Below are positions 4,036 through 57,396 of a DNA stretch of 64,000 nucleotides, in pieces. The position numbers were made by a program, and so were the translations under genes. The stretch's first letter is position 1. The number at the start of each line of letters is the position of its first letter. Source of the DNA: Patescibacteria group bacterium. Lineage in GTDB: Bacteria > Patescibacteriota > Patescibacteriia > Patescibacteriales > UBA12465. Where the stretch lies: contig JAQUAK010000002.1 in the NCBI GenBank assembly GCA_028687275.1, positions 70,102 to 134,101 on the forward strand, given 5' to 3'. The notes under the pieces are model-generated. The model ran no database searches, was not told the DNA's origin, and saw only the letters and a list, made by a program, of their open reading frames with translations.

Positions 4036-4084
4036 AATAGATACAATTCCTAAAAAATGATATACTGATTTTAGAAAAAATACT

Positions 4085-6047: not shown

Positions 6048-6111
6048 CAAAAAGTATAAACAATATATCTATATTTCAAATTGTGTTATAAAAAAATAAT
6101 TTACAAAATAT

Positions 6112-6861: not shown

Positions 6862-6862
6862 T

Positions 6863-7815: not shown

Positions 7816-7827
7816 AATATAAAATAC

Positions 7828-7857
7828 AAAAAGTTGCTTAATCAGCAACTTTTTTTT
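7828..7857. terminator. bidirectional hairpin between convergent genes
   Basis: AAAAAGTTGCT-TAATC-AGCAACTTTTT with flanking A and T runs. Confidence 0.65.
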
Positions 7858-7868
7858 ATTGGTAACTA

Positions 7869-8582: not shown

Positions 8583-8584
8583 AA

Positions 8585-9409: not shown

Positions 9410-9573
9410 AGTTTTGATTTAATTACTATAATAACTCTATATATTTATAGTACTACCCAGATGGGTAAAAATCAATTTATATATTAAATATTCTTAATTA
9501 AAACTACAAAAATAACAAATAAGCCAGCATATGTGAATTGGACTTTAACCAGTAATTATGATAAATTGTCATT

Positions 9574-9720
9574 GACTACCTACAATTATTAGTAATAAAA
9601 AGCACGAAAAGACTGCTCAGTCTTTGCCGTTTTACGGGCAGAAATGGGCAGTTGACCTCCGCAAAACGGTAGCTTCGTGCTATTGCTAATAGTGGGTAGT
9701 CTGGTTGACTGCCCTTTTTT
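9574..9720 (+). ncRNA. candidate structured RNA / cis-regulatory leader with terminator-like 3' end
   Basis: Nested helices 9574-9583/9692-9701, 9601-9608/9674-9681 and 9626-9633/9663-9670. GGGCAGTTGACC (9646-9657) pairs with GGTTGACTGCCC (9703-9714), followed by T6. Several pairs are G-T, valid only for a plus-strand RNA. Confidence 0.4.
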
Positions 9721-9753
9721 GTTAGGGCACTTTAATAAAATAATCATAATTTT

Positions 9754-10173
9754 ATGCGAAAAAAGCGCCCAAGCAAGAAAACTAAATGGATCATTGGATT
9801 AACTTTGTTCTTTGTATTTATAATCGTAATTTCTTTAACGAGTCAAAACTCTCCAATCCCCGAAACTACACATAAGGATATAAGTAATATGACCGCTCTA
9901 CAACAAATGACGATTGCTTTTGATGGAGATTATCCAGAAAAGGAAATTAAAGACAGAATTACTGAAGCAATGGTCTTATATAATGTACCAATAACAGAAG
10001 AAAACTATAGTAAGGCTGGAAGTTCTTTAGTAGCATTAAAAAATAATTCTAATATAGAAGAAATGCTTATTTTAGACTATATGATAAATAAGCTATACAC
10101 TCCAAGCGCTAATCTATCCTTCCCAGAAGCGGCTGGGCTATCTGTTACCGTATTGAAAACAGGCGCCAACTAA
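9754..10173 (+). CDS. hypothetical membrane-anchored/secreted protein (139 aa)
   Basis: N-terminal basic stretch plus a hydrophobic helix (WIIGLTLFFVFIIVISL). No other motif. Confidence 0.45.
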   Translation: MRKKRPSKKTKWIIGLTLFFVFIIVISLTSQNSPIPETTHKDISNMTALQQMTIAFDGDYPEKEIKDRITEAMVLYNVPITEENYSKAGSSLVALKNNSNIEEMLILDYMINKLYTPSANLSFPEAAGLSVTVLKTGAN

Positions 10174-10230
10174 ACATTTGCCTATAATGCCACCAAGATA
10201 TAATATATAGCTATATATAAATAAAATTAT

Positions 10231-10968
10231 ATGGAGGCACAAACTAAAAAATCGTCAGACATAACTAGGTGGGTGTTAAACAGAATACAAACAGAGCGAG
10301 CACTTGATTCTAGATCAGGAAAAAATGTTATTACTTTTAGCTATGGCAATAAAAAAAATGAACCGACGGCATCAGAGCAATATCACGAACTAGAAAAACT
10401 TAGTGACTGCGGAGCAATAAGAGTAATAAAAGAGGCTTTTGAAAATATTATTTCCTTAAAAACGGGAAAACGAATTAAAGTCGTAGAAGATGCTCCAATA
10501 GTAATGCTCTCCAAAAAAACTATATTCCCTAGCCAAGCAATAATAGAGATCAAAGAAAAAAAGTTTTTTGAACTACTAGTAAAGCACAACATTATTGCAG
10601 ACAAAGAAAAAATTAAATATACATTTAATCCCGATATTCCTGAAGGAAGCTTTACTGTCGGAGAAAAAACAATTCAATTCCGTGGAAGAGTAAGTGCTAT
10701 AATTCAATATTTTTATGAGAACAAAAGTAAATTAAGTATTAACTCTGATTTTGAAGATTTTATAAAGTATCTATCATCGCATGACAATATAGTAATCCAA
10801 AATTTAAAATCACCAGATAATAAAATATTTAGAGATGGAATAAAAGAAATTAACGAAAGAATTAAAAAAGAATTTATAAACATAAACACAATTATAGGCA
10901 AAACAAATAAAGAAAAAACGACTGGAAGAAATACATATCAATGGAGAATTGAGTTTGATTCTATTTAA
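10231..10968 (+). CDS. hypothetical protein (245 aa)
   Basis: Long ORF followed by a terminator. No motif recognised; no reverse-transcriptase YxDD motif. Confidence 0.45.
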   Translation: MEAQTKKSSDITRWVLNRIQTERALDSRSGKNVITFSYGNKKNEPTASEQYHELEKLSDCGAIRVIKEAFENIISLKTGKRIKVVEDAPIVMLSKKTIFPSQAIIEIKEKKFFELLVKHNIIADKEKIKYTFNPDIPEGSFTVGEKTIQFRGRVSAIIQYFYENKSKLSINSDFEDFIKYLSSHDNIVIQNLKSPDNKIFRDGIKEINERIKKEFININTIIGKTNKEKTTGRNTYQWRIEFDSI

Positions 10969-11000
10969 AAGGGCTTAGGGGGAGTGTTAATAAAAAAACT

Positions 11001-11026
11001 AATTGGCTAAATATAGCCAATTTTTT
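11001..11026 (+). terminator. rho-independent-type terminator
   Basis: AATTGGCTA-AATA-TAGCCAATT followed by a T-run. Confidence 0.65.
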
Positions 11027-11089
11027 GTTATAAAAAACGCTCTAAAATTGTTTCATCAAATGTGGGAAAATGGGGATACATTAACAATT

Positions 11090-11310
11090 CACGGCAGACA
11101 GCGCGACCTTGGTTCGCCTGTATAAACAATCAAAATCAACAGCTCAAACTGCTTCTAATAAAAGGGAGAAGCTGTCGGTGGTGTCTAAAGTCTAAATTCC
11201 CGCTCTGTGCAAACACTCACAACGGGGACTTCCCTTTAGACATCACTGAGTAATCCTAATTGCCTGTGATACACACTAGTCTTTAATCCCTAGAAATAAT
11301 AAAGGGAAGG
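11090..11310 (+). ncRNA. candidate structured non-coding RNA of unknown class
   Basis: Locally G+C-richer than the flanks. A 16-bp helix 11175-11190/11234-11249 has two G-T pairs (plus-strand RNA only). Hairpins at 11099-11120 and 11151-11172. The track ORF 11062-11253 has no coding-like features. Confidence 0.35.
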
Positions 11311-11341
11311 AGAAAAGTGTTTTATATAGCCATATAAGAAT

Positions 11342-11551
11342 ATGAAAAAAATAGACACTAACGGACTAGACATAAAACAGACAGACACTAAAAAGAAAAA
11401 AATATTTAGACCAACCGAACTTAATCTTCCTCGCAAGGTATATTTAACCGAAGATGTATATACAATTCTCAGGCGTCAAAAAAGGAAACAGCAGAAATCA
11501 ATGGCAAGGATAGCCTGTGATCTTATTAGGGCAACATATTTTAAAAAATAA
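11342..11551 (+). CDS. small basic protein, possible ribbon-helix-helix DNA binder
   Basis: 69 aa. KVYLTEDVYTILRRQKRKQQKSMARIACDLI resembles a beta-strand plus two helices of RHH regulators. Weak call. Confidence 0.3.
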   Translation: MKKIDTNGLDIKQTDTKKKKIFRPTELNLPRKVYLTEDVYTILRRQKRKQQKSMARIACDLIRATYFKK

Positions 11552-11588
11552 AAAACAAACTATATTCCGAATTTTGACTAAAAATGAT

Positions 11589-12017
11589 ATGGCTAAAATA
11601 TTAAAAACAAAAATAAGAAAAAAAGACAAATACCTTGAATTTATTTACTGGATTTCTCAACCGAGTATTATGAGACAACCAAAAAAACTACAAGATTTTG
11701 CAAAAAAAATCGGAATACACAAAGACACTCTAACTAACTGGAAATATACAGAGTCATTTTGGGAAGATGTTAAAACGGAAAGAATTAGTTTTATGCAAGA
11801 AATACTTGGAGACGCTATAGTGGCTCTAAAAAGAAGAATTATAAAATATGGACGTGCATCTGATGTAAGATTAGCGTTTCAACTGGCAGGAGAATGGAAC
11901 TACGAAAAAAAGCTATCAGAAGAAATATCCATAAAGGTTGAAAATAAACTAACGGAATCCAAAATTGAAGAAATGACAGATAAACTAAAGAAGTGGAAAA
12001 GAGAAAATCTTGAATAA
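11589..12017 (+). CDS. HTH protein, phage terminase-small-subunit-like (tentative)
   Basis: Track ORF 11517-12017; internal ATG 11589 avoids overlap with the upstream gene. LQDFAKKIGIHKDTLTNWK is an HTH of the kind at the N-terminus of small terminase / transposase-HTH proteins. Confidence 0.3.
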   Translation: MAKILKTKIRKKDKYLEFIYWISQPSIMRQPKKLQDFAKKIGIHKDTLTNWKYTESFWEDVKTERISFMQEILGDAIVALKRRIIKYGRASDVRLAFQLAGEWNYEKKLSEEISIKVENKLTESKIEEMTDKLKKWKRENLE

Positions 12018-12108
12018 TAACTGGAAAATATGTCAAAAAAGTAATAGAGTAATGCTGTACAGATGTGACTTAGTGGGTCGCATTCCGCATTGCTCGTTAA
12101 CAAACTAA

Positions 12109-12318
12109 ATGAAACTAAGTTCAAACGAACACAACCAAATACCAAGTCTAATGACGCCTAAAGATTTAGCATCAATGCTAAAGGTTTCTGGCACAACCAT
12201 TTATAGAATAGTGGAGAGTAGAAAAATACCTTTCTATAAAATAAATGGTGGTATTAGATTTAAACAAACAGACATAGAAGCTTACATGAGTAAGAATCGT
12301 TTTGAACCGTTCAAATAA
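12109..12318 (+). CDS. xis: excisionase-family / MerR-type HTH DNA-binding protein
   Basis: LMTPKDLASMLKVSGTTIYRIVESRKIPFYKINGGIRFKQTDIEAYM is the classic HTH_17 excisionase pattern. Located immediately upstream of the integrase. Confidence 0.7.
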   Translation: MKLSSNEHNQIPSLMTPKDLASMLKVSGTTIYRIVESRKIPFYKINGGIRFKQTDIEAYMSKNRFEPFK

Positions 12319-12322
12319 TTAT

Positions 12323-13471
12323 ATGAGTGTATATAGACGCGGAAACAAATACTGGGTAAGCATAAGATACAATCAACGCAGATACAGGCTATCCTGCCCA
12401 GCTAATACACAAGCGGGAGCAAAAGCCTATGAAGCCTCTCTAAGGAGCAAATTAGCCCAAGGAAAGCCTATTATGGACAAACAGGAAGAATCTATTAGCT
12501 TCTCTAATTTCGTCGATAAATGGTTTAATACCTACGTTATAACCAATAACAAACCATCGGAACAGCTTAACAAAAAAATGGCCATTAAAAACCATTTAAG
12601 ACCATTCTTTGGTAAAATAGACATTGATAAAATCAACAACCTAAATATTGAAGAGTTTAAGGCCAAAAAGCAAAACGAAGGTAAATGTAATAAAAGTATA
12701 AATAATTATCTCGGCATGCTAAGAAAATGTTTAAACTGCGCCGAGGAGTGGGAGTTAATAAATAAAGCACCAAAAATAAGACCCTTAAAAGTCCCTCCGC
12801 AAAAATTTAACTTTTTTACTGAGGCAGAATATAACCAAATACTTGAAGAGGCAAAAAAGATAAACGAAGAATTTTATGAAATGGTTTTATTTACTCTAAG
12901 AACAGGTGTAAGGGTTGGAGAATTGTTAGCCTTAAGATGGGAAGATATAGATTTTGATAAAAAAACAGTGACAATCCAAAGATCTATAGTAAACGGAATT
13001 ATCGGGTCTCCAAAAAGTAATAAAGTAAGAGAAATACCATTAGCGGATGACATTTTTTTCATCCTAAAGCGCAAAAAGGCCACTTTAAAAAACTTTAAAA
13101 TTTTGACACTTTGGAAAATTAAAATTAGCCGTTTTTCGCTAAACAGAGCGCTAAAACGTGTTTGTGGTGTTTTTGATTTTAAAGTCGGCGGTTGGCACGA
13201 TTTAAGACACACTTTTGCCTCTAAATTAGCCAACAACGGAATACCCCTTCAAGTCATCCAAACACTGCTCGGACACTCCGATTTAAAGATGACTCAACGC
13301 TACGCACACTTAGAGCCACTAACACTAAGCGATGCCATTAAGACGCTTGAGTCTAAAAAGCCTTTAGCTTTTAATTTTGGACACAATATGGACACAGTCA
13401 CTAAAAATCCAGACAATTCCGAGATTAAAAGAATTCCTATAAACAGCAATTTTACCCTTAATATAAAATAA
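12323..13471 (+). CDS. int: tyrosine-type site-specific integrase
   Basis: Track ORF 12302-13471; MSVYRRGNKYW is the typical start. Catalytic region LRTGVRVGELLAL ... WHDLRHTFAS ... LGHSDLKMTQRYAHL contains the R..HxxR..Y residues. Confidence 0.9.
   Translation: MSVYRRGNKYWVSIRYNQRRYRLSCPANTQAGAKAYEASLRSKLAQGKPIMDKQEESISFSNFVDKWFNTYVITNNKPSEQLNKKMAIKNHLRPFFGKIDIDKINNLNIEEFKAKKQNEGKCNKSINNYLGMLRKCLNCAEEWELINKAPKIRPLKVPPQKFNFFTEAEYNQILEEAKKINEEFYEMVLFTLRTGVRVGELLALRWEDIDFDKKTVTIQRSIVNGIIGSPKSNKVREIPLADDIFFILKRKKATLKNFKILTLWKIKISRFSLNRALKRVCGVFDFKVGGWHDLRHTFASKLANNGIPLQVIQTLLGHSDLKMTQRYAHLEPLTLSDAIKTLESKKPLAFNFGHNMDTVTKNPDNSEIKRIPINSNFTLNIK
13375..13399 (+). repeat. 25-bp direct repeat, right copy (inside integrase 3' coding region)
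   Basis: Identical to 2765-2789. Encodes FGHNMDTV of the integrase tail. Confidence 0.5.
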
Positions 13472-13502
13472 AAACAGGCTATAAACCTGTTTTTAAATAA
13501 GG

Positions 13503-13523
13503 GTGGGCGCACAAGGATTCGAA
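13503..13523. repeat. att core, int-proximal copy (within tRNA-Val)
   Basis: Identical 21-mer to 2629-2649. Confidence 0.8.
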
Positions 13524-13577
13524 CCCTGGACCCCTTCGGTGTAAACGAAGTGCTCTAACCAGCTGAGCTATGCGCCC
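13504..13577 (-). tRNA. tRNA-Val (anticodon TAC)
   Basis: Reverse complement GGGCGCATAGCTCAGCTGGTTAGAGCACTTCGTTTACACCGAAGGGGTCCAGGGTTCGAATCCTTGTGCGCCCA folds as a cloverleaf. Anticodon loop TTTACAC. No encoded CCA. Confidence 0.9.
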
Positions 13578-13590
13578 GATTCTTAAGGGG

Positions 13591-13674
<84 letters not shown>

Positions 13675-14896: not shown

Positions 14897-17800
14897 ATGT
14901 ATTTAGAAAAACTGGAAATTCAAGGCTTTAAATCTTTCGCCAATAAAAATAAATTAATATTTTCCAACACTATTGATGAGAAAGGACATCGTGGATTAAC
15001 CTCTGTTGTTGGTCCTAATGGCTCTGGAAAGTCTAATATCGCCGATGCCGTCCGTTGGGTTTTAGGCGAACAAAGTCTAAAAACTTTACGCGGTAAAAAA
15101 AGTGAAGATGTAATTTTTTCCGGATCTGATCAAAAAAGCCAATTATCAATGGCTGAAGTTTCTTTATTTTTAAACAATGAAGATCGTCAAATTGCTATAA
15201 TTCAACCAATTTTAGAAAATGGCGAAGAAGAAAACGAAACTGATCCTGCAGGACGCTCTTTGTCTCCACTAGATTACGATCAAATTATTATTACCCGTCG
15301 CCTCTATCGTAGCGGCGAAAGTGAATATTTACTTAATGGCAATCGCGTCCGCTTAGCTGACATACAAATACTTTTAGCCAGAGCCAATGTTGGTCAAAAA
15401 ACTTACAGCGTTATTGGACAAGGAATGGTAGAAAATTTTCTTAACACTGGCGCCTCTGAGCGTAAAGACTTCTTTGATGAAGCTACCGGAGTAAAGCAAT
15501 TCCAAATTAAGCGTGATCAATCTTTAAATAAATTAGAAAATAGCTACGAAAATTTACGCCAAGTGGAAATGCTGCTTAATGAAATCCGTCCTCGTCTAAA
15601 AATGCTAACTCGGCAAGTTGATAAATTGAAAAAGCGAAGTCAACTAGAACAAGAATTAAGTTCTCACCAGCATCAATATTTTTTCCATCTTTGGCAGGAT
15701 ATTAATGAAAAATTAAATAATACTAATAAGCAATTAGTTATTTTAGAGAAAGAACAAGGTGAAAAAGAAAAAGAATTAGAACTAATTAATACTGGTTTAG
15801 AAAAGATCAAGCGAAGTGATGATGGGTCTAATATTTCTGAGCTACAAGAAAAATTAAGGGTATCTCAAAACGAAAGAGCTGTTATTATAAGAGATATTTC
15901 TCGCTTAAATGCTGAACTAGAACTACAGTTAGAGTCACAGGGTCAATTTGATGTTGCCTGGCTAAATAATAAGCACGAGGAATTAAAACGTGAACAAGAA
16001 CAACTAACTAAAGAGATAGGATTATTACAAAGCCAGAATCAGAGCAACAAAGAAAAAGAATTACGCGATGAACTTCAAAGAGTCGCTGAAGAAATTTCTA
16101 AAAAAGAAGTAATTAAAACTAAAAATAACCTTCGCTTAGAAGAAAAAGCTAGACTCATTAAACAAATCACTCGTTTAGACGCAACTCTGGAGGCTAATCT
16201 TGAGGCTCAGGGTCAATTTGATGTTGCCTGGCTGAATAATAAACAAGAAGAACTACGTCAATCTTTAGATAAGTTAAAAAACGAGATTGAAACAATTAAC
16301 TTAAATGAAGCACAAAGTGCAATCAAAAATTTAGAAGAAAAGCGCATCGCTCTTGATAGCCTGATTACTCGTGACAACAACGAACTACAAAATATTAATC
16401 GTGAGTTAAAGATAAACGTTAAGCCTGCGGCAGGAAGAGATGAAATTAACGAGAGCATTGAATCATTTCTTAGACAGTTAGACGCTATCAAAGAGGAACA
16501 GGATTTAGATAAAATAAAAGCCCTAATTGAAGAGGCAAAAAAAGAGTTCAAAAAGAAAATTACCACCCTGATTGATGGAGAAAATTCAATTAAGTTAGAG
16601 CAGGCTAAAACTTTACAAGAAAATATTATTAGAAATAGTGAAGAAAGACAAGAATTAATCGCTGAAATTAACGAGCTCAGACTTGATCTTTCTACTAAAC
16701 AAGAAAGACGCCGTTTACTAGAACACCAAGAACATCAATCACAGATTGAAATCCAAGATATTGAAGCTAAAATTGCTAAAAGCCAGATTAAATTTGATGC
16801 CAATAAAATTAAAGAAGAACAGTCACAAATTAATCAGAAGATTAAAGAATTAGAGGACAATATTAGTGAAGCAACAACAAGTAGTAGAACGGACGCCTTA
16901 ATTAACAAAAGACAGGAATTAATTAATGAGCTAAACGAATGTCGACTAAGTATTAATTCACGTCATGATAAAATTAAGTTGTTTTCAGAAAAACAACAAC
17001 AAAATTTAAAAGAGATTAAAGATATCCAAGACAAAATCGCAAAGAGTCAGGTTAAATTTGATGCTAACAAGCTTGAGGCTGATAAAAAATCTTTAAATAT
17101 TAAATTATCTCTACTTGATGTCGATATTAACAAATGGCAAGTTGAACTAAACCAATATAACCAAGACAAAGAAGAAGAAAAGAGGCAACTATTTTCCTAT
17201 CAATCCCAAATTCAAGAATTACAGAGTGAGTTAAATCAATTATCGAATAAAACTAATAATTATAAAATCGAAATCGCTCGTCAAGAAACAAGACTTGAAG
17301 ATTTAGAAAATAATATTAATAATGAAGAAATTGAAATTGAATCTATTAAAAATTATCAAATCAAAAATGAGGAAGAAATTGAAGATGAGCGCTTACGCAA
17401 GCGCATTAATGAATTAAAAAATCAATTAGAGCTAATTGGCGGCATTGATCCAGAGACAGAAAAAGAATTTATTGAAACCGACGAGCGCTATCAATTCTTA
17501 ACCAAACAAACTGATGATCTAAGCGCTGCCATCCAGTCGCTAGATCGAGTAATTACTGAACTAGATATTAATATCAAAGAAAGATTTGAAAAAGAATTTA
17601 AAATTATTTCAGAAAAATTTAGTGAATACTTTAAAATTCTATTCAACGGTGGTAATGCTAAAATGTTTAAATTAGAAACTGAAGATGCAAATAAAGACGC
17701 TGACGTGAATTTAGCAAATAATGATAATAAAGAAGATGAAAGATATAGACGACTAAAACAATTAAAAAAATACAGCACTTCTGGTGTTGGTGGCATTGAA

Positions 17801-18148
17801 ATTCAAGCAACGCCTCCAGGTAAAAAAATACAATCAATCTCTATGCTTTCTGGCGGCGAGAGAGCCTTAACAGCAATTGCCTTAATTTGTGCTATTATTA
17901 GTGCTAATCCATCTCCATTTGTTTTATTAGATGAAGTTGACGCCGCCCTTGATGAGTCAAACTCAGAGCGCCTAGCACAAATCCTTGACGATTTATCTGC
18001 CAAAACTCAATTTATTACCATTACTCATAATCGTGCCCTAATGAAAAGAGCAAGTATTATTTATGGTGTAACCATGAAAGCAGATAGTGTTAGCCAATTA
18101 TTAAGCATTCGTCTAGATGAAATGGAAACTTTTCAAAACAAAACTTAG
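14897..18148 (+). CDS. smc: SMC-family chromosome partition ATPase, apparently hinge-less
   Basis: N-head LEIQGFKSF...GPNGSGKSNIADAVRWVLGEQS...LRG. C-head LSGGERALTAIALICAI...LLDEVDAALD. About 650 aa of uninterrupted coiled-coil-like sequence between the heads, with no hinge-like Gly-rich globular segment. Confidence 0.85.
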   Translation: MYLEKLEIQGFKSFANKNKLIFSNTIDEKGHRGLTSVVGPNGSGKSNIADAVRWVLGEQSLKTLRGKKSEDVIFSGSDQKSQLSMAEVSLFLNNEDRQIAIIQPILENGEEENETDPAGRSLSPLDYDQIIITRRLYRSGESEYLLNGNRVRLADIQILLARANVGQKTYSVIGQGMVENFLNTGASERKDFFDEATGVKQFQIKRDQSLNKLENSYENLRQVEMLLNEIRPRLKMLTRQVDKLKKRSQLEQELSSHQHQYFFHLWQDINEKLNNTNKQLVILEKEQGEKEKELELINTGLEKIKRSDDGSNISELQEKLRVSQNERAVIIRDISRLNAELELQLESQGQFDVAWLNNKHEELKREQEQLTKEIGLLQSQNQSNKEKELRDELQRVAEEISKKEVIKTKNNLRLEEKARLIKQITRLDATLEANLEAQGQFDVAWLNNKQEELRQSLDKLKNEIETINLNEAQSAIKNLEEKRIALDSLITRDNNELQNINRELKINVKPAAGRDEINESIESFLRQLDAIKEEQDLDKIKALIEEAKKEFKKKITTLIDGENSIKLEQAKTLQENIIRNSEERQELIAEINELRLDLSTKQERRRLLEHQEHQSQIEIQDIEAKIAKSQIKFDANKIKEEQSQINQKIKELEDNISEATTSSRTDALINKRQELINELNECRLSINSRHDKIKLFSEKQQQNLKEIKDIQDKIAKSQVKFDANKLEADKKSLNIKLSLLDVDINKWQVELNQYNQDKEEEKRQLFSYQSQIQELQSELNQLSNKTNNYKIEIARQETRLEDLENNINNEEIEIESIKNYQIKNEEEIEDERLRKRINELKNQLELIGGIDPETEKEFIETDERYQFLTKQTDDLSAAIQSLDRVITELDINIKERFEKEFKIISEKFSEYFKILFNGGNAKMFKLETEDANKDADVNLANNDNKEDERYRRLKQLKKYSTSGVGGIEIQATPPGKKIQSISMLSGGERALTAIALICAIISANPSPFVLLDEVDAALDESNSERLAQILDDLSAKTQFITITHNRALMKRASIIYGVTMKADSVSQLLSIRLDEMETFQNKT

Positions 18149-36667: not shown

Positions 36668-37600
36668 CTACTTTACGGTCGCTTGAATTGTCGCCTCTGC
36701 ACCTTGAATATATTGATAAGCAGATAAAGCTGCAACCGTAGCCTGTCCCATAGCAATAGTAATCTGCTTATAATCACTAACAACCACGTCTCCAGCTGCA
36801 AATAATCCAGGAGTTTTAGTTGCTTGCTTTTCATCCGCTAAAATTTGATCTTTGCTGTCTCGTTCCACAAATTCACTAACTAAGTCTGTGCTAGCAATTC
36901 TACCAATTTCCACAAAAATACCATCGAGTGGCAGTTTAATAATTTTATCATCTACATCTGTATAAACTATTCCATCAACTTTTTCCTTACCTTCAATTGT
37001 TTCTATTTTAGCATTAGTAATTATATCAATATTTTCTCTACGCTTTACCTCTTCAACTAAAGAATCAAAAGCCTTAAATTTATCACCTCTAGCAATTAAA
37101 TAAACTTTGCTAGCTATTTTTGATAAAACTTCAGCAGCATCAAAAGCTGAGTTTCCACTACCTATAACCGCAACCTCTTTTCCTCTATACAAAGGTCCGT
37201 CACAGTTAGCGCAATAAGAGACACCCCTTCCGCTTAATTCTAATTCACCTGGGACGGCTAAGCGTCGAGGCGCTAGACCCATAGTGATTATAACTGTTTT
37301 TGCTTCAAATTGATCTTTTTCTGTAAATAAAACAAAATTTCCGTCTGCTTTTTTTTCAATCTTTTTTACTTCAGCCGTCTTAACTTCAACCCCTGAAGCA
37401 AGTGCATGGTCATTAAACCTGGTAATAAGCTCAAAGTTACTAATATTAATAAAACCGGGATAATTTTCAATTTCTCCCGCCCAAATGATTTGCCCACCAG
37501 CTTCTTTACCTAAAATCAGAGTTTTCATTTCTCGACGAGCCGCATAAATCCCAGCTGTAATTCCGGCTGGTCCTTGTCCAATAATGATTGTGTCGTACAT
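36668..37600 (-). CDS. trxB: thioredoxin-disulfide reductase
   Basis: FAD motif IIIGQGPAGITAGIYA, redox-active CANC (YCANCDG), NADPH motif VIGSGNSAFDAA. ATG 37600 (MYDTIIIG) preferred over track start 37642. Confidence 0.85.
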   Translation of the reverse strand: MYDTIIIGQGPAGITAGIYAARREMKTLILGKEAGGQIIWAGEIENYPGFINISNFELITRFNDHALASGVEVKTAEVKKIEKKADGNFVLFTEKDQFEAKTVIITMGLAPRRLAVPGELELSGRGVSYCANCDGPLYRGKEVAVIGSGNSAFDAAEVLSKIASKVYLIARGDKFKAFDSLVEEVKRRENIDIITNAKIETIEGKEKVDGIVYTDVDDKIIKLPLDGIFVEIGRIASTDLVSEFVERDSKDQILADEKQATKTPGLFAAGDVVVSDYKQITIAMGQATVAALSAYQYIQGAEATIQATVK

Positions 37601-37746
37601 AATAATTTTACTAATTAATTTATATGTGCAAATATTATACATCTTCGTATTTGAAAATGCAATTTAATTTTTATACTAAATATTAGATAAGTTATCTTGA
37701 TATTATTATATAATATTGCTAATATTAGCAAAAATTAAATAACTAA

Positions 37747-38381
37747 TGTTCTACGAAGAACATTACTATATCAAATTTATCTAAAAAAAATTTATTTTGC
37801 CTTTGATTATTTTACTATTGTTCTTCGTAGAACAATGATTTAATTTATTAAATATAATAATATATAATATTTTACTCGTAGCATGTTCTACGTAGAACAT
37901 GTATATATCTTTTAACATCAATAATTAATAAATATATATTTATTCAAAGATATAAATCTACAAATGTTCTATAAAGAACATTTAGGACAAAGCGTATGCT
38001 TATTTTTAAATAATAGTTATAAAGATATATTAATTTTAATTGTTCTACATAGAACATTTATCTTCAAATTCATAGAAGATAGTTATAATTATAGTAGGTA
38101 ATATTTGTTCTACGCAGAACATCAGCTAATTTTATAAAATCTTCTTTATAAATGTTCTACGCAGAACACAACTTACTAACTATATTATCTAAATTTTTAC
38201 ATGTTCTACGTAGAACATATTAATATAGGCTGTTATCTGTAAAATATCCTACAAAAAACAAAAAATCAGCCTAAGCTGATTAAATTGTGGACCATAAGGG
38301 ACTTGAACCCTTGACCTCTTCCATGCCATGGAAGCGCTCTAGCCAACTGAGCTAATGGCCCTTAATGTTCTACGCAGAACT
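37747..38381. repeat. array of nine parS-like 16-bp palindromes, consensus TGTTCTACGNAGAACA
   Basis: Cores start at 37747, 37819, 37884, 37965, 38041, 38106, 38153, 38202 and 38366. The copies at 37884 and 38202 are the perfect palindrome TGTTCTACGTAGAACA. The intervening sequence is AT-rich and non-coding. Confidence 0.85.
38288..38361 (-). tRNA. tRNA-Ala (anticodon GGC)
   Basis: GGGCCATTAGCTCAGTTGGCTAGAGCGCTTCCATGGCATGGAAG...TCCA. The G3-U70 wobble pair (Ala identity element) is present. Confidence 0.9.
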
Positions 38382-38444
38382 TTTACTATAATAACACATT
38401 CCATTATCCTGTCAATAACATTTTTTAATATACTTGTCAATATG

Positions 38445-38516
38445 TGCCCTCGCTAGGAATCGAACCTGGATCTAGAACTTAGGAGGTTCTTGTTTTATCC
38501 ATTAAACTACAAGGGC
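38445..38516 (-). tRNA. tRNA-Arg (anticodon CCT)
   Basis: GCCCTTGTAGTTTAATGGATAAAACAAGAACCTCCTAAGTTCTAGATCCAGGTTCGATTCCTAGCGAGGGCA. Anticodon loop CTCCTAA. Confidence 0.9.
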
Positions 38517-38700
38517 AAGGCAAGACAAAATAATAATAACTGATATTTATTATTTTTACAACTAAAAAACAGTCTTTTATATTATAATAACATTAAATAA
38601 ATTTTTGACAAAGATTAAAATTTGTTCTAAAATACTATTAGCCAAAATCATATTTAATTAAAGGCTTAAAATTAAAAATCTACTGCGAAGGAGGTGGTAG

Positions 38701-39114
38701 ATGCTTAAATTTATGTTTAATAAAGATACAAAGTTAGAAAAATTCAAAGATGCTGAAACTATTATCGGCGCTTCTATTAAAGTTAAAGGTAATTTTAATG
38801 GTCAGGGCGACATTGTGGTTGAGGGAATGCTTGAGGGATCATTAAAAACGATAGCCAATGTTTTTGTTGGAGAAAAGGCTAAAGTTAGCGCTAATATTGA
38901 AGCTTCAGAGGCTTTAATCAACGGAGAGGTTAGTGGTGGTATAAAAATTAAAAAATATTTAGCTATTGGGGAAACAGCAAGAATTAGTGGTGATATTCAA
39001 TGTGGAGAAATTTCAATTGAAAGAGGTGCCTCTATAACAGGTCAAATCATTGTTTCTTCAGAAGAATCAAAAAAAATTGATAATAAAAAAGATAAAATTG
39101 AGAATGAGGCTTAA
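38701..39114 (+). CDS. bactofilin
   Basis: Strong SD (GAAGGAGGTGG). IIGASIKVKGNFNGQGDIVVEGMLEGSL...VSANIEASEALINGEVSG beta-helix repeats of the DUF583/bactofilin type. Confidence 0.8.
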   Translation: MLKFMFNKDTKLEKFKDAETIIGASIKVKGNFNGQGDIVVEGMLEGSLKTIANVFVGEKAKVSANIEASEALINGEVSGGIKIKKYLAIGETARISGDIQCGEISIERGASITGQIIVSSEESKKIDNKKDKIENEA

Positions 39115-39126
39115 ATATTATCGTAT

Positions 39127-39876
39127 TTGCTTATGAATGCATATATTTACGATGATTTTTTAAATAAAAACCGTTATCGTCGCTCGCTTAATCGTGTAGA
39201 AATAAGATTAACAGACCTTGGTTTAAACGGAAAAATCATTAGACTAGGCGCAATCAAGAATATTAAGGAGGTTATTCAGGCGGAAATTAAAAACGGAATT
39301 AAAAATATCATCGCAGTTGGCAACAACGAAACAGTTAATAAGGTTATTAGTGCAATGATAACAAATAAAAACTACAGCCCGTTTCAAAAGGATGTATTAT
39401 TTTCTGTTATTCCAATTGGTGGAAACAATTCAATCGCTAATTCTTTCGGCATAAAGAAAGAAGAAGATGCTTGTAATATTTTACTTGCTCGCAGGGTGAA
39501 GCAAATAGACGTTGCCTACGCTGGGAATAATATTTTTTTAAACAAAGCAGAGTTAATAAGTAATGACGCAATTATTGAAATTAATAGCGATTATCACATA
39601 GAATTAGACAGTAAAACTAATGTTAAAATTATTAACGTAAATGATGACAGCAAACTGATGTTTAAAGATAAAATATACCCCAATGACGATAATTTAAATT
39701 TGATTGTAGGCGGAAGAAATGCAGACAATACCTTTATTACTAGTGACCACATTAAGATGCGCGGTACTGGTGAAATAATTCTTGATGAATCAATAGTAAT
39801 TTCTTTACCAAGTGAAATGGGCATTATCCAACAAAAAATAAATATTATAGTCGGAAAAGATAGAAGTTTCAATTAA
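39127..39876 (+). CDS. diacylglycerol-kinase-family lipid kinase (YegS/BmrU-like)
   Basis: IIAVGNNETVNKVISAM and IPIGGNNSIANSFG motifs of the DAGK catalytic domain. Confidence 0.6.
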   Translation: MLMNAYIYDDFLNKNRYRRSLNRVEIRLTDLGLNGKIIRLGAIKNIKEVIQAEIKNGIKNIIAVGNNETVNKVISAMITNKNYSPFQKDVLFSVIPIGGNNSIANSFGIKKEEDACNILLARRVKQIDVAYAGNNIFLNKAELISNDAIIEINSDYHIELDSKTNVKIINVNDDSKLMFKDKIYPNDDNLNLIVGGRNADNTFITSDHIKMRGTGEIILDESIVISLPSEMGIIQQKINIIVGKDRSFN

Positions 39877-41606: not shown

Positions 41607-43001
41607 ATGAATAATGATCAAATCTGGCAAGCAACCTTAGGTGAGTTGGAAATTAATTTATCAAGAGTTAATTTTGTGACCTGGTTTAAGGATACTTTTT
41701 TAGCCTCTCTTGAAAATGGAAGTGCTATTATTTGTGTGCCAAACGCTTTTGTAAAAAAATGGTTGGAAGAAAAATATCATAAAAATATTGTTAGCTCTCT
41801 AGAAAACATAGCCAAACAAAAACTAAATCAAATTATTTATAAAATAGAATTACGACATCTTCCGGGACAAATTGTAGTTGGCGCAAAAATAGAGGGAAAT
41901 AGAATGGCTACCAATAATGAAAGCGCACCGATATCACAACCCTCAGAAATAAAAAATAATAATGTTAATAAGTTTGGTTTAAACCCTAAGTATGTTTTTG
42001 AAAATTTTATTGTTGGTAAGGGTAATGAGTTAGCGAATGCTGCCTGTCAGGCAGTAGTAAATAATTTAGGAAAAGCTTATAATCCTTTATTTATTTATGG
42101 CGGTGTTGGCTTGGGTAAAACTCACTTACTACAAGCTATTGGTAATGAGGTAGCAAAACACACTGATAAGTTGTTATACACAACTAGTGAAAAATTTACA
42201 AACAACTATATTCAGGCCGTTCAAACTGGTAAGGGAAAAGATTTTAAAAACATGTACCGTAACGTGGACCTACTTTTAATTGATGATGTCCAATTTATGG
42301 GTGGTAAAGACGGAACTCAAGAAGAATTTTTTCATACTTTTAATGAACTGCAACAAAGTGATAAACAAATTGTAATGACATCTGATCGCCCGCCAAAATC
42401 AATCCCAGCTATTGAAAAAAGATTAATCTCTCGCTTTGAGTCTGGTATGGTTGCTGACGTTGGTAAGCCAGATGTTGAAACAAAAATTGCCATCTTAGAA
42501 AAAAAATCTCTAGAAAAAAGCTTTCCTTTGGATAAGGATGTTTTGGTGTTTATTGCAAATAATGTACAAAATAATATTCGTGAGCTTGAGGGAGCTTTAA
42601 ATAAAGTAATCGTTATTCATCAATTAAACAACTCTATACCTACCTTAAAAAGTGTTAAAACAGCATTAAGTGATTATGTATCAAGCTTACAAGCTAAATC
42701 TTTAACCCCAAAAGAAATTATTGAAGCAGTTTCAAGTTTTTATGAAATAAATATTAAAGATATTACCGGTAGTAGTAGGAAAAAAGAATTAGTGGGACCA
42801 AGACAGGCTGCTATATACTTAATTAGAGAAGAATTAAATACATCATACCCTAGTATTGGCCAAGAGATGGGCGGACGTGATCACACAACAGCTATGCATG
42901 CTTATAATAAAATATTAAAAGAGGTTACTGAAGGTGAAAATGAAAAATTAAAGCAAGATTTAGAATCAATTAAACAAATTTTTAGCTCCTCTCCATATTA
43001 A
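41607..43001 (+). CDS. dnaA: chromosomal replication initiator DnaA
   Basis: Walker A GGVGLGKTHLLQAIG, LLIDDVQF, sensor IRELEGAL. C-terminal DNA-binding domain SIGQEMGGRDHTTAMHAYNKI. Confidence 0.95.
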   Translation: MNNDQIWQATLGELEINLSRVNFVTWFKDTFLASLENGSAIICVPNAFVKKWLEEKYHKNIVSSLENIAKQKLNQIIYKIELRHLPGQIVVGAKIEGNRMATNNESAPISQPSEIKNNNVNKFGLNPKYVFENFIVGKGNELANAACQAVVNNLGKAYNPLFIYGGVGLGKTHLLQAIGNEVAKHTDKLLYTTSEKFTNNYIQAVQTGKGKDFKNMYRNVDLLLIDDVQFMGGKDGTQEEFFHTFNELQQSDKQIVMTSDRPPKSIPAIEKRLISRFESGMVADVGKPDVETKIAILEKKSLEKSFPLDKDVLVFIANNVQNNIRELEGALNKVIVIHQLNNSIPTLKSVKTALSDYVSSLQAKSLTPKEIIEAVSSFYEINIKDITGSSRKKELVGPRQAAIYLIREELNTSYPSIGQEMGGRDHTTAMHAYNKILKEVTEGENEKLKQDLESIKQIFSSSPY

Positions 43002-43262
43002 TAATGGGCATTAGTTGTGTATAAGGCTTCGTTTTTCTGTGGATTAACTTGTTACTAAAAAATATTAAACAGTTTATAAGCATCTAGTTATTAATACTCA
43101 AAAAAGTAATCCACTTTTACAACAAGTACAAGTCACTAATAAAAAACACCCTCATCCACAAAAGAATTAAGCTAATAATAAAATAAAAATAACTCATTTC
43201 AAATTTTTCCACACCCCTTATTACTACTATTATTAAAATATATATAAATTAATATATAATAT
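43002..43262. other. probable oriC (DnaA-box cluster plus AT-rich unwinding tract)
   Basis: 9-mers within 1 mismatch of TTATCCACA: 43016-43024 (TTATACACA, minus), 43038-43046 (TAATCCACA, minus), 43152-43160 (TCATCCACA), 43205-43213 (TTTTCCACA). One with 2 mismatches at 43107-43115. An almost pure A/T tract at 43220-43262. Confidence 0.6.
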
Positions 43263-44384
43263 ATGAAATTTATCTGTTTACAAGAAAATCTAAAAAAGGG
43301 ATTAGCTATGGTTAATCATATAAACAGTAAAAATATTAATTTACCCATACTAAATAATATTTTAATTAAGTCTGGTGATAATGGAATAGAGTTAATTAGT
43401 ACTAATTTAGAAATTGGAATAACACATCAATTGAGAGGAAAAGTTGAGAATAGCGGAGAGATGACAATTGATGCTAAAACAATAAGTGATTATGTTAATT
43501 TATTACCATCAGAAAAAATTGAATTAGATGAAAAGGAAAATGAAGTTTCTTTAAGGTGTGGAAATTATAAAACAAAAATAAAAGGAGAGTCGTCAAAGGA
43601 GTTTCCACTTATTCCAGTCATTGATAAAAATAATTTTTGTGAATTAAATATTTTTGACTTCAAAAAAGCTTTAAGTAGTGTTGCTTTTGCCGTCGCAAGT
43701 AATGATAACCGCTTAGAGTTATCTGGGGTAATGTTTTCTTTTGATGATAAAGTATTAACTTTAGCCGCAACTGATAGTTATCGATTAGCCGAAAGAAAAA
43801 TTAAAGTTAATACTGGAAATATTGGTGACTCAAAGGTAGTTGTTCCAGCTAAAACAGTTCAAGAAATTTTAAGAATAATTTCTAATTATAGTAGTGATGC
43901 TCAGGCGATAGAATCTGATGTTGTTAAAATATATTTATCTGATAATCAAATTTTATTTAGTTTAGATTCAATAGAATTGATATCTCGTTTAATTAACGGT
44001 CAGTACCCAGATTATAAGCAAATAATTCCAGATAAATATAAAACAAATGCTAGTATTAATCGTCAGGACTTAATTAGAGCTATTAAAGCCTCCTCTATAT
44101 TTTCAAAGGCAGGGGTTTTTGATGTATCTTTAATTTTTAAGAAAGGATTGGTTAATGTTTATTCATCTTCTGGTCAAAATGGAGAAAGCTCAATTGACCT
44201 TAAGGCTGAGGTCGTGGGGGATGATAATGATATTACTATTAATTATCGATATCTTTTGGACGGTTTAAATATTATTGAGAGCGAAATAATTAATCTTCAA
44301 GTGATTAATAGTAATACTCCTTGCTCCTTATCATCAATTGATGATGAAGATTATTTGTATATTGTTATGCCGATTAGAAATTAA
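43263..44384 (+). CDS. dnaN: DNA polymerase III beta sliding clamp
   Basis: Position after dnaA. 373 aa. LAATDSYRLAERK and NGQYPDYKQIIP motifs. Confidence 0.9.
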   Translation: MKFICLQENLKKGLAMVNHINSKNINLPILNNILIKSGDNGIELISTNLEIGITHQLRGKVENSGEMTIDAKTISDYVNLLPSEKIELDEKENEVSLRCGNYKTKIKGESSKEFPLIPVIDKNNFCELNIFDFKKALSSVAFAVASNDNRLELSGVMFSFDDKVLTLAATDSYRLAERKIKVNTGNIGDSKVVVPAKTVQEILRIISNYSSDAQAIESDVVKIYLSDNQILFSLDSIELISRLINGQYPDYKQIIPDKYKTNASINRQDLIRAIKASSIFSKAGVFDVSLIFKKGLVNVYSSSGQNGESSIDLKAEVVGDDNDITINYRYLLDGLNIIESEIINLQVINSNTPCSLSSIDDEDYLYIVMPIRN

Positions 44385-54896: not shown

Positions 54897-56267
54897 TTAG
54901 GCTGATTTAATTAGATTTAAAACTTCGTCACGTTTTTCAATCATTACTTTCTCATCATTAGCTTCTAAATTCAAACGGACCTTATCTTCAGTGTTAGAGG
55001 CTCTTACATTAAACCAGTATTCAGGATAAGTAACACTGACGCCATCTAAAGTTTTTATATCAGTGTCAGTGTAAGTGTTTTTTATTCTATCAAGGACCTT
55101 GTCTTTGTCTGCTACCGAAAGGTTTATCTCTCCAGAGTGGCTATAACGTCTGTAGGGTTTAATAAATTCAGCTACACTAGAATCTTGTGCGGAGAATAAT
55201 TCTAGTAAACGTCCAATCATTATTATTGGCATTTCAAAGCAGCCAATTTCTAGATTAAGAAAAAAGTGTCCAGAAGACTCCCCGGCAAAGTAGGCATCTT
55301 CAGCTAGCATTTGTTCTTTAATTAAAGAGTGTCCAACTCGACTAGGAATAGCTACTCCGCCAGCCTCTTCAATCAAATCAACAGTTATTTTACCTGGTCG
55401 GACATCGTAACAAATTTTGCTATGAGGTTTATCTTTTAGAAATATTTGGGCAAGTAGACCTCGAATAATAGCTGGGTCAATTAATTGACCTAAATTATCC
55501 AAAAAGAAAACACGGTCACCGTCGCCGTCGGTGGCAATGCCCAAGTCAGCGCCATTTTTTATAATAGTTTCTGATAACTGCCTAATATTTTCTGGTTTTA
55601 GGGGGTCGGCTTCGTGAGCGGGAAAATTACCATCTAAATCTAAATTTATCCCCTCCAGTTTAATCGGTAAGTTTTGGGCTAATAACTTCAGATATTGTGC
55701 GCCCATACCATTAGCGGCGTCAGCTACAACATATAAAGGTTTAATTTTATCTTTATGAATAAAATTTAGGTCATGCATTAATTGGTCCTCAGCCCCTGTT
55801 GATAAAAGTGCGGAATTAGTTTTAATGTTTTGATTTAAAATACTACTATCTATATGCTCTTTTAACCATTCAATGCCAGTCTCGCCGCTAACGGGCAAGC
55901 TCTTAGCTCTTACCAATTTAAAACCGTTCCATTCTTTAGGGTTGTGAGAAGCTGAGACCATGATGCCGCCATCAGCTACTTGTTTAGAAACGCTGAAATA
56001 AAAGGCAGGAGTTGATAATAGGCCAGCATCGATAACCTCGGCTCCAGCAGCTTGGAGTCCAGAAATTAAGCTCATACTAACTGCTGGTGAACTTAAGCGC
56101 ATATCACGCGCTACTAGAATTTTTAAAGTTTTTCCGGCCACATAATCCTGATCATGCTTACGTAGGGACACAAAAGCTTTTCCAAGTTGATAGGCAAAAT
56201 CGAGATCAAAATCTTTATTAAAAATTCCTCTGATATCGTAGGCCTTAAATATATTAGGATTAAACAT
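54897..56267 (-). CDS. phosphomannomutase/phosphoglucomutase
   Basis: Active-site GIMVSASHNP, metal loop TDGDGDR, sugar loop GESSGH. Confidence 0.9.
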   Translation of the reverse strand: MFNPNIFKAYDIRGIFNKDFDLDFAYQLGKAFVSLRKHDQDYVAGKTLKILVARDMRLSSPAVSMSLISGLQAAGAEVIDAGLLSTPAFYFSVSKQVADGGIMVSASHNPKEWNGFKLVRAKSLPVSGETGIEWLKEHIDSSILNQNIKTNSALLSTGAEDQLMHDLNFIHKDKIKPLYVVADAANGMGAQYLKLLAQNLPIKLEGINLDLDGNFPAHEADPLKPENIRQLSETIIKNGADLGIATDGDGDRVFFLDNLGQLIDPAIIRGLLAQIFLKDKPHSKICYDVRPGKITVDLIEEAGGVAIPSRVGHSLIKEQMLAEDAYFAGESSGHFFLNLEIGCFEMPIIMIGRLLELFSAQDSSVAEFIKPYRRYSHSGEINLSVADKDKVLDRIKNTYTDTDIKTLDGVSVTYPEYWFNVRASNTEDKVRLNLEANDEKVMIEKRDEVLNLIKSA

Positions 56268-57396
56268 AAGAATTTATTTTTTTAAAGTATATTAAAATTG
56301 CTCCTAGGCCGAAGCTACTAGCTACAAAAGAAATAAGCCAACCAAGATAAGGGATCACACAGAGCGACCATAAAATAATTACACCAACAATTAGGGCTAG
56401 AGTAAAGTTTTGTTTATTTTTACTGAATTTATCAAGTAAATATTTACCTACCAAGATGGCAATAATAATTTTACCAAGACATAAAAGAGTAATCCAAAAA
56501 ATAACCAAAATTAAAGCCAGGGGCATGCCAATAATTGAAAAGGTTAAAATAATAGCCACTAAAGGTACGATTAAAGAGGTTAAAAGCCCCCAAGTTAGAC
56601 TTTTATTTATATTTTCTTTTAGACTTTTACTAAGATTAATTAAGTGTTTTTTTCCTAAGGTGCTTAATACTAAGCCAATAACAAGTACCGCAAAAATTTT
56701 ATAAATAAATGACCAGACTTTTCGAGTAGTATCTTTTTTATCAGTATTTTCTTTTTTTATTGATTCGGTTTTTCCAGTAATATTTGCTTGTTCCGATATA
56801 TTTAAATAACTTCCTTCACTGTATAAAAAATCACCGTTGATATTAGCCTCTGGGCTAATCGTAATTTTCTGAGCTTGGCTACTGTGACTAAAGTTAAAGT
56901 TTTTGCCAATTTTTCCTGCGAGACTAATACTATCGCTGCTACCATCGACATTGCCTTTAATAGTCCCCTTAATATCCGTATTTAAAGCCCCTGTTACTAA
57001 GTCCCAATTAATTTGAGCATTTTTTTCAATATTCAAATTATTGCCAACAAAATTTACGTTACGGGCGATAGAGCCATTTATAGTAGCCGTGTTGCTGATT
57101 GAGCGAAGATTGCCGTTAATTTCGCCATTAACAACAATTGTCTGCGCCAAGGCAATTAAATCACCATCTAGACGCCCATTAATTGTAATGGTTTTAGCTA
57201 AAGCAATTAAATCACCATTAATATCTCCATCAACTATAATATTATTACTGGCGGTGTATAAATTACCATCAATTGTTTCTCCTTGCGGAATATATAAATT
57301 TTCACTAGACTTGAGTTCCGCAGCCGAGACGCTTATTGGTATAATAAATAATCCAAGAAGAAAAGTGGCCATGAATAATTTGACGATTTTAGTCAT
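56260..57396 (-). CDS. bactofilin-repeat (beta-helical) protein with signal peptide and C-terminal multi-TM anchor
   Basis: Signal peptide ending SVSA. Repeats DGDINGDLIALAKTITINGRLDGDLIALAQTIVVNGEINGNL. Four to five C-terminal TM helices. Confidence 0.5.
   Translation of the reverse strand: MTKIVKLFMATFLLGLFIIPISVSAAELKSSENLYIPQGETIDGNLYTASNNIIVDGDINGDLIALAKTITINGRLDGDLIALAQTIVVNGEINGNLRSISNTATINGSIARNVNFVGNNLNIEKNAQINWDLVTGALNTDIKGTIKGNVDGSSDSISLAGKIGKNFNFSHSSQAQKITISPEANINGDFLYSEGSYLNISEQANITGKTESIKKENTDKKDTTRKVWSFIYKIFAVLVIGLVLSTLGKKHLINLSKSLKENINKSLTWGLLTSLIVPLVAIILTFSIIGMPLALILVIFWITLLCLGKIIIAILVGKYLLDKFSKNKQNFTLALIVGVIILWSLCVIPYLGWLISFVASSFGLGAILIYFKKINSYV

Follow-up and report, generated by a model that had tools for sequence, protein, structure and literature searches.

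Nine copies of a 16-bp palindrome, TGTTCTACGNAGAACA, lie at 37747-38381 in one non-coding gap close to the replication origin of a Patescibacteria chromosome, and they probably (roughly 0.7) represent a chromosomal centromere, a dense parS-type cluster about 4.6 kb from oriC that would be the target of a ParB protein. The array itself is real, conserved and origin-proximal, and its sites look like a variant of parS that probably loads a ParB encoded elsewhere. Two properties of parS are found: proximity to the origin, and a physical tie of the same sequence to parA-parB, the latter in other phyla and not in the window, by which we mean the whole 64-kb stretch of DNA that was analysed. Origin-proximal parS clusters are already well known. 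What is new here is that the T6/A11 variant (T and A at positions 6 and 11 of the palindrome) is apparently used across several phyla, that the sites reach a plasmid-like density of 9–12 in less than 1 kb of one intergenic gap, and that in the origin-region DNA of a Patescibacteria clade the array is separate from any parAB operon.

The array and its origin setting

No copy of the palindrome occurs in the 64-kb window outside the gap. The nine sites, to which no strand is assigned, are the following.

37747-37762, no strand: site 1, TGTTCTACGAAGAACA
37819-37834, no strand: site 2, TGTTCTTCGTAGAACA
37884-37899, no strand: site 3, perfect palindrome TGTTCTACGTAGAACA, 18 bp with the flanking A/T
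37965-37980, no strand: site 4, TGTTCTATAAAGAACA, the centre most divergent of the set
38041-38056, no strand: site 5, TGTTCTACATAGAACA
38106-38121, no strand: site 6, TGTTCTACGCAGAACA
38153-38168, no strand: site 7, TGTTCTACGCAGAACA
38202-38217, no strand: site 8, perfect palindrome TGTTCTACGTAGAACA
38366-38381, no strand: site 9, TGTTCTACGCAGAACT, with T as its last base instead of A

A re-scan of the window recovered every core where an earlier note on this DNA had placed it, with the same start-to-start distances (72/65/81/76/65/47/49/164 bp), and also bore out its description of two perfect copies, sites 3 and 8, both extendable to ATGTTCTACGTAGAACAT, and of a ninth copy that deviates at the last base. 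The relaxed pattern GTTC-N6-GAAC has nine matches in the 64 kb, all within the array, against an expected 0.39 and a maximum of 2 in 100 shuffles. The nine sites thus take up 635 bp of one intergenic gap. The label of a tandem array, which the same note had used, does not fit: what recurs is a core of about 16–20 bp alone, the spacers are unrelated to each other, the spacing is irregular (47–164 bp) and Tandem Repeats Finder (TRF) reports no array in the gap. Nor is this a CRISPR array, given the 16-bp palindromic core, the irregular spacing and the lack of a significant match to any CRISPR repeat family; the sole family match lies outside the sites and is at chance level (25 bits against a gathering score of 50).

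The gap lies between a thioredoxin-reductase-like gene and a bactofilin gene, in the following surroundings.

14897-18148, plus strand: SMC-like ATPase, with SMC_N domains only
36668-37642, minus strand: trxB-like (thioredoxin-reductase-like) gene, left flank of the gap
37643-38700, no strand: non-coding gap with the array
38287-38361, minus strand: tRNA-Ala(ggc), located within the array; a terminator-like hairpin of its own is at 38264-38281
38388-38415, minus strand: promoter-like site TTGACA-16-TGnTATTAT upstream of tRNA-Ala, 11/12 matches
38444-38516, minus strand: tRNA-Arg(cct), a conserved neighbour of the array
38701-39114, plus strand: bactofilin, right flank of the gap
39127-39876, plus strand: DAGK-like gene, forming a pair with bactofilin (38701-39876)
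between the DAGK-like gene and dnaA, minus strand: yidC, yidD and rnpA
41607-43001, plus strand: dnaA, in the origin region
43016-43213, no strand: probable oriC, with four clustered DnaA boxes (up to one mismatch each) between dnaA and dnaN
43263-44384, plus strand: dnaN

That the gap is non-coding save for the two tRNAs, as had been claimed, agrees with both checks made here: the open reading frames in 37643-38700 are short and of low complexity, with no plausible small ORF and no gene besides the tRNAs, and no Rfam family other than tRNA is matched. The claimed closeness to the origin also stands, at 3.2 kb from the array to dnaA and 4.6 kb to the DnaA-box cluster.

Such a position raises the possibility that the palindromes are themselves part of the replication origin and are bound there by an initiator or by a regulator of the origin. 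The cumulative G-C minimum of the window, at 38683, coincides with the right edge of the array gap, and the array region is very AT-rich, as this explanation would have it. However, the curve has another minimum near 42 kb that is only slightly less deep, the palindrome is unlike a DnaA box, and the DnaA boxes are in the dnaA-dnaN gap and not in the array, since 37643-38700 contains no TTATCCACA-like 9-mer with up to one mismatch. The same sites also lie next to parAB in other phyla (see below). We consider a role as an origin element highly improbable.

Conservation within Patescibacteria

The same palindrome recurs, in 3–12 copies each, at about 27 related Patescibacteria loci. These are syntenic low-GC loci, some of them filed under misleading NCBI labels such as ‘uncultured Gammaproteobacteria’, and every cluster lies beside bactofilin-DAGK, yidC-yidD-rnpA or dnaA-dnaN. 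The comparison of the syntenic gap among related genomes, which the earlier note had proposed as a check, therefore shows the array to be retained in the origin region throughout a deep clade of Patescibacteria. Across 26 Patescibacteria sources, the window included, 136 sites have at most two mismatches to the perfect palindrome; 131 of them are in the main cluster and the other five are 350–1300 bp away. The clusters combined make up 10.2 kb of the 274 kb that these sources provide. A REP-like spread of the motif, which would have spoken against the parS reading, is thus not seen in the DNA examined. Many of the Patescibacteria arrays are found where a contig ends and thus seem to interrupt assembly.

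The closest relatives are L112, with 83–86% nucleotide identity in the flanking genes and 12 sites (9 of them with up to two mismatches), and L120, with 80% identity and 11 sites, all 11 within two mismatches. The array gap of L255, a relative whose 959 kb form a single contig, contains four sites, which are more degenerate. In a three-way alignment of L112 and L120 with the window, 80 of 96 columns are invariant in the sites compared with 124 of 368 in ungapped spacers, a further 266 spacer columns containing gaps. Palindromes that are kept while the spacers diverge are a clear phylogenetic footprint. Over 149 sites, the stem positions that the search pattern did not impose are nearly fixed (T1 98%, T6 96%, A11 95% and A16 99%), and variation is concentrated in the central 4 bp. 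Stems that are invariant in sequence, with the variation confined to the centre, argue for a DNA site read by a protein rather than for an RNA hairpin, the stems of which would covary.

This bears directly on the possibility that the copies are transcribed hairpins (small RNAs or terminators) or selfish REP/MITE-like repeats. Every site can be folded, with 6–9 bp and –4.7 to –10.6 kcal/mol, and one of them scores as terminator-like, but the hairpins are mostly weak and lack U-tracts, no Rfam family is matched, and the stems do not covary. As for mobile repeats, the window has no copies outside the locus in 64 kb, every copy in the 274 kb of relatives’ DNA is within about 1.3 kb of the main cluster, and only the 16–20 bp core is repeated. 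Explanations of this kind are scarcely credible.

The location of the array differs between subgroups, in that it is found at one or the other end of the bactofilin-DAGK pair. In a divergent subgroup (L056, L072, L081/L115, L117, L121 and L124; DnaA 57–63% identical), it occupies the space that separates yidC from the DAGK-like gene. Since the array shifts from gap to gap and keeps its proximity to the origin, it tracks the origin region and not one promoter.

For this reason we regard it as very unlikely that the sites are operators for a repressor of the flanking genes (tRNA-Ala, tRNA-Arg, bactofilin and trxB). Palindromes of 16 bp are typical of HTH dimers, and for site 9 such a role is less remote: it ends 4 nt short of the tRNA-Ala 5′ end, on the upstream side, it overlaps the +1 predicted for the strong tRNA-Ala promoter, and the relatives L120, L049 and L012 have a site at the same place. 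Yet 9–12 sites in a gap with two tRNA genes are far beyond regulatory need, promoter-like matches in the gap are no more common than in shuffles (13 versus 10.2 ± 3.1), and in the divergent subgroup the array has moved to the yidC-DAGK gap, with proximity to the origin as the only feature retained. The tie of the same palindrome to parAB elsewhere also speaks against an operator set.

Relation to parS and to parAB in other phyla

With the chromosomal parS of ParB/Spo0J (consensus TGTTNCACGTGAAACA) the sites share a 16-bp palindrome in the same frame, the outer TGTT/AACA and the central ACGT, as well as an origin-proximal location, multiple copies and retention across relatives. Measured against the parS consensus TGTTNCACGTGNAACA, the perfect copies agree at 14 of 16 bases, the remaining ones at 13 of 16. 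The two mismatches form a mirrored pair at positions 6 and 11, T/A here instead of the C/G of chromosomal parS, and to our knowledge these positions are not known to vary in characterised parS sites. The perfect palindrome TGTTCTACGTAGAACA differs solely at these two positions (C6 to T, G11 to A) from TGTTCCACGTGGAACA, which is the parS of Bdellovibrio bacteriovorus and binds its ParB in vitro (PMC10547168). The arrangement differs as well: chromosomal parS sites are spread over kilobases and are often inside genes, whereas here nine are packed into 635 bp of one gap, with no parAB within tens of kilobases of the array.

Plasmid centromere arrays are likewise dense and non-coding, with about ten ParB-type palindromes. 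The F-plasmid array sopC, for example, has a 43-bp unit with an inverted repeat that recurs 12 times in tandem next to sopAB. Unlike this regular tandem repeat on a plasmid, the present array is irregular, repeats its core only and consists of chromosomal parS-type sites at a chromosomal locus with core genes on both sides; regular head-to-tail units beside a partition operon, as in sopC, are not found in it. The parS of Burkholderiaceae-type secondary replicons, TGTTCTAATTAGAACA, is likewise a 16-bp palindrome with the outer half-site TGTTCT/AGAACA, and we find it in L074/L099 at 1 kb or less from a parA-parB pair. It differs in having a central AATT instead of ACGT, its own parAB adjacent and GC-rich Proteobacteria as hosts. 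A further comparison is offered by Noc-binding sites (NBS), 16-bp palindromes that are read by an HTH protein of the ParB fold and are derived from parS through mirrored substitutions. Such sites are dispersed along the chromosome outside the terminus region and deviate from parS at other positions, in contrast to the one origin-proximal locus here; Noc is mentioned as a ParB paralogue in PMC12704722. The 14-mer GTTCTACGTAGAAC is absent from the roughly 8 million full texts searched, and this literature contained nothing direct on the motif or on chromosome partitioning by ParB in Patescibacteria.

We scanned 185,579 species-representative genomes for two GTTCT-N4-AGAAC sites 33–63 bp apart, which gave 104 loci, and JGI metagenomes with a stricter pattern, which gave 28. 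Many pattern matches in the genome collection were discarded as unrelated repeats, among them units of 21 bp in Treponema and of 22 bp in Bacteroidales as well as other palindromes whose centre differs, and two groups of loci were left, those syntenic in Patescibacteria and those adjoining parAB. In the latter, clusters of 2–7 copies of TGTTCTACGTAGAACA abut soj/parA-spo0J/parB genes in at least 13 loci from other phyla, at least four in number and including Acidobacteriota-type genomes, Bdellovibrionota and Bacillota. They come both from the genome collection (L068, L071, L082, L032, L047 and L031) and from the metagenomes (L107, L111, L114, L116, L118, L123 and L126), and the clusters are placed as follows.

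Upstream of parA: L068 and L071 (Acidobacteriota), L082 (Bdellovibrionales) and L032 (Oligoflexia)
Upstream of parA, on GC-rich soil contigs: L107, L111, L114, L116, L118 and L126
Between parA and parB: L047 and L123 (Bacillota)
Just downstream of parB: L031 (Clostridia)

Pfam identified a canonical ParA (AAA_31/CbiA) and a three-domain ParB (ParB_N, HTH_ParB and ParB_C) in all four loci tested (L068, L082, L047 and L031). Canonical TGTTCCACGTGGAACA is mixed into the variant clusters of L047, L123 and L133, the hybrid TGTTCCACGTAGAACA occurs within the clusters of L033, L107 and L127, and another hybrid, TGTTCTACGTGGAACG, is in the L071 cluster. Because the two forms and their hybrids share clusters, variant and canonical parS belong to one recognition family. 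The site flanks are A/T-rich (consensus AAAATGTTCTACGTAGAACATTTT) even in genomes of 57–60% GC; those of the Patescibacteria sites are similarly A/T-rich, a likeness that their AT-rich background makes uninformative.

Viral contigs contain at least 120 single matches to the perfect palindrome, many with a common homologous flank that resembles conserved coding context. No clustered arrays are among them, and the viral contigs with the palindrome gave no ParA match and only two weak matches to the ParB profile; we therefore judged these single matches to be unrelated.

The earlier note had taken the mirrored change as the mark of a co-evolved ParB specificity, which is not borne out. In ParBs beside variant arrays, the recognition helix starts with I-T-N (L047), V-S-N (L068, L114 and L126) or L-V-N (L082); I-A-N is also found among variant-associated ParBs, and L031 and L133 keep Ala. 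The ParBs of B. subtilis, Thermus and Myxococcus have (I/V)-A-N at this place. Judged from these alignments, there is no consistent recognition-helix change in the variant-associated ParBs. Given the inconsistent helices and the clusters in which canonical, hybrid and variant half-sites are mixed, we favour the view that T at position 6 is tolerated over a clean switch of specificity.

A probable ParB encoded elsewhere and what it may do

In most bacteria, parAB lies next to its own parS cluster, and an array with no linked parAB is therefore atypical. We searched six-frame translations using hmmsearch --max with profiles made from the ParBs and ParAs that adjoin variant arrays. With filters off, no ParB or ParA was found in the 64-kb window (best E about 2) or in the origin regions of the roughly 27 relatives, which amount to about 295 kb, nothing falling below E = 0.7. 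Pfam scans of 50 window ORFs likewise returned no ParB or ParA, and no ParB-like match appeared at E ≤ 1 among the unannotated window ORFs. Both genes are thus absent within 26–37 kb of the array in the window and within about 10 kb in any relative. A homologue search seeded with a Clostridia ParB returned Clostridia-like ParBs only. Of the earlier proposal of a dense parS cluster at the origin, the sites have gained in support, through the identical palindrome beside parAB in other phyla and the conservation at the origin region, whereas the ParB and ParA that should go with them are found neither in the window nor in the origin regions of relatives.

How likely the genome is to encode such a ParB can be judged from its probable affiliation. 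Its nearest named neighbours carry the NCBI name ‘Candidatus Falkowbacteria’; among them is L257, the DnaA of which is 69% identical to that of the window and which is as close as the divergent array-bearing subgroup (57–63%). The window translates cleanly with genetic code 11, giving long uninterrupted ORFs, which we take to exclude the recoded Gracilibacteria orders for this genome. The label ‘Candidatus Falkowbacteria’ corresponds to GTDB class ABY1, order BM507 (PMC11809585), making ABY1/BM507 the likely GTDB order of the genome, as judged by the NCBI labels of its neighbours alone. Most Patescibacteria orders have chromosomal parB in 90% or more of their species, with 49/49 near-complete species positive in BM507, 97% in Saccharimonadales and 96% in Moranbacterales; parB-poor orders are Paceibacterales (19%) and UBA1369 and Peribacterales (about 6%), and the proportion is 0% in UBA1406, BD1-5 and Absconditabacterales (PMC12704722 Dataset S1). 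Considering the 49/49 in BM507 and the Falkowbacteria neighbours, ParB is probably encoded elsewhere in this genome.

The missing linkage could also mean that canonical ParB was lost and that a dimeric DNA-binding protein other than ParB organises or tethers the origin, for example to the adjacent bactofilin scaffold. Besides the absence of ParB and ParA from the DNA around the array, three observations would agree with this: several Patescibacteria orders largely lack a chromosomal ParB, the bactofilin-DAGK pair always adjoins the array, and bactofilins of Myxococcus position the ParABS machinery (mentioned in PMC12704722). However, an unrelated protein would have to read the exact extended palindrome that flanks parAB in other phyla, ParB was present in 100% of the surveyed species of ABY1/BM507, to which the genome probably belongs, and no conserved DNA-binding candidate is present near the array, the neighbours of which are a GT-B glycosyltransferase-like protein, an EamA transporter, a GT2 enzyme, the DAGK-like protein and bactofilin. 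We hold a binder of this sort to be quite unlikely, although it would become the main rival were the genome to lack ParB. A DUF6938 neighbour was considered as the binder and rejected, as it resembles a GT-B glycosyltransferase.

If the array is a parS-type centromere, as we prefer, a dimeric HTH protein of the ParB/Spo0J family encoded outside the window would bind each palindrome. ParB dimers would then bind CTP, close as clamps and slide outward from the sites, and nine loading sites in 635 bp should create a high local density of ParB over the origin, dnaA and the neighbouring genes. Such a density would label the origin for segregation, whether or not ParA takes part, and the ParB-covered origin would probably recruit or load the SMC complex. 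The SMC-like ATPase is a possible downstream client of such a ParB-parS loading site; what links it to the array is their co-occurrence in the window only. The presence of ParB in the genome, its binding and spreading, SMC loading and a role of ParA or bactofilin are what we infer, and the steps of the mechanism are modelled on ParB-parS systems in general (PMC10547168, PMC12704722). Unlikely, in our estimate, is a version in which the 9–12 sites form a centromere without a canonical linked ParABS, served by an as yet unknown reader protein or by an orphan ParB that would work without ParA and with bactofilin as a tether to the membrane or pole.

We know of no experimental work on chromosome segregation in Patescibacteria (CPR). 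A compact, conserved candidate centromere of 9–12 sites offers a handle on this process, both as a tag for the origin and as a platform for ParB loading in vitro, and the array may serve as a marker for locating origins in fragmented metagenome-assembled genomes (MAGs). Beyond this clade, TGTTCTACGTAGAACA stands beside parAB, in place of canonical parS or together with it, in Acidobacteriota-type genomes, Bdellovibrionota and Bacillota. Since the variant adjoins parAB in several phyla, parS annotation that requires C at position 6 would miss real centromeres. Specificity at positions 6 and 11 is now directly testable, as a choice between a tolerated change and a switched specificity. Should the array prove to be a centromere without a canonical linked ParABS, it would mean a new way for ultra-small symbiotic bacteria to anchor their origin.

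Palindromes at the origin in relatives

Within window 38366-38415, a single copy of the palindrome lies 4 nt 5' of the tRNA-Ala start and overlaps the predicted +1 belonging to TTGACA-16-TGnTATTAT, a strong promoter-like site; the array-bearing Patescibacteria relatives L120, L049 and L012 carry a copy in this position too. The array is not universal across the wider clade, given that a close relative, 'Candidatus Falkowbacteria' L257 (GCA_026396805.1; DnaA 69% identical), carries no palindrome sites within ±10 kb. This genome retains the gene order dnaN-dnaA-rpmH-rnpA-yidD-yidC and lacks the bactofilin-DAGK pair.

Related clusters in other bacteria and single copies in viruses

Contigs of Paraburkholderia and Cupriavidus contain clusters of TGTTCTAATTAGAACA or TGTTCTTATAAGAACA, which share the outer half-site with the window palindrome but differ from it in the centre.

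Paraburkholderia/Cupriavidus clusters
L074, 7509-7991
L099, 4202-4684
L013, 332-1541

A parA-parB pair lies approximately 1 kb or less from the cluster in L074 and L099, and the Paraburkholderia/Cupriavidus clusters are probably centromeres of secondary replicons. A further parS array may be present in a Pirellulaceae contig (L088), which ends in a 38-bp tandem unit containing GTTCTACGTAGAAC (7705-7823); the unit breaks the assembly of this contig. In the Acidobacteriota locus L068, a 362-aa open reading frame without any Pfam match (4381-5469) is located between parA and parB, downstream of a cluster of parS variants.

At least 120 viral contigs (L135-L254) also contain the perfect 16-mer, always as a single copy, and in many of them the flanking sequence is homologous and resembles a conserved coding context. 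ParB-profile matches in these contigs are limited to two, both weak. We rejected the viral matches as kin of the array and regard them as unrelated, given that they are single copies without clustered arrays or ParA.

Other features of the window

The SMC-like protein (14897-18148) matches SMC_N/AAA families only, with no hinge family match at E < 1e-3. A second, longer protein with a bactofilin domain (378 aa) is encoded at 56260-57396. The region 2872-13674 looks like an integrated island.

Features of the putative island (2872-13674)
Schlafen/AlbA_2 protein
C5 cytosine methylase and HpaII-type restriction enzyme
HNH nuclease
12302-13471, tyrosine integrase, adjoining tRNA-Val/tRNA-Leu
13502-13674, tRNA-Val/tRNA-Leu, adjoining the integrase

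Assembly breaks and record labels

Many Patescibacteria arrays are located at contig ends (L039 and L097, L025, L076, L084, L095); L039 and L097 are two contigs of one MAG, and a single array is divided between their ends. The array repeats appear to fragment short-read assemblies in the origin region. Public MAG records (L012, L067, L072, L076, L084, L095 and L025) are labelled 'uncultured Gammaproteobacteria' or 'Muribaculaceae'; they show synteny and protein-level similarity to this Patescibacteria origin region, and their labels are probably wrong.
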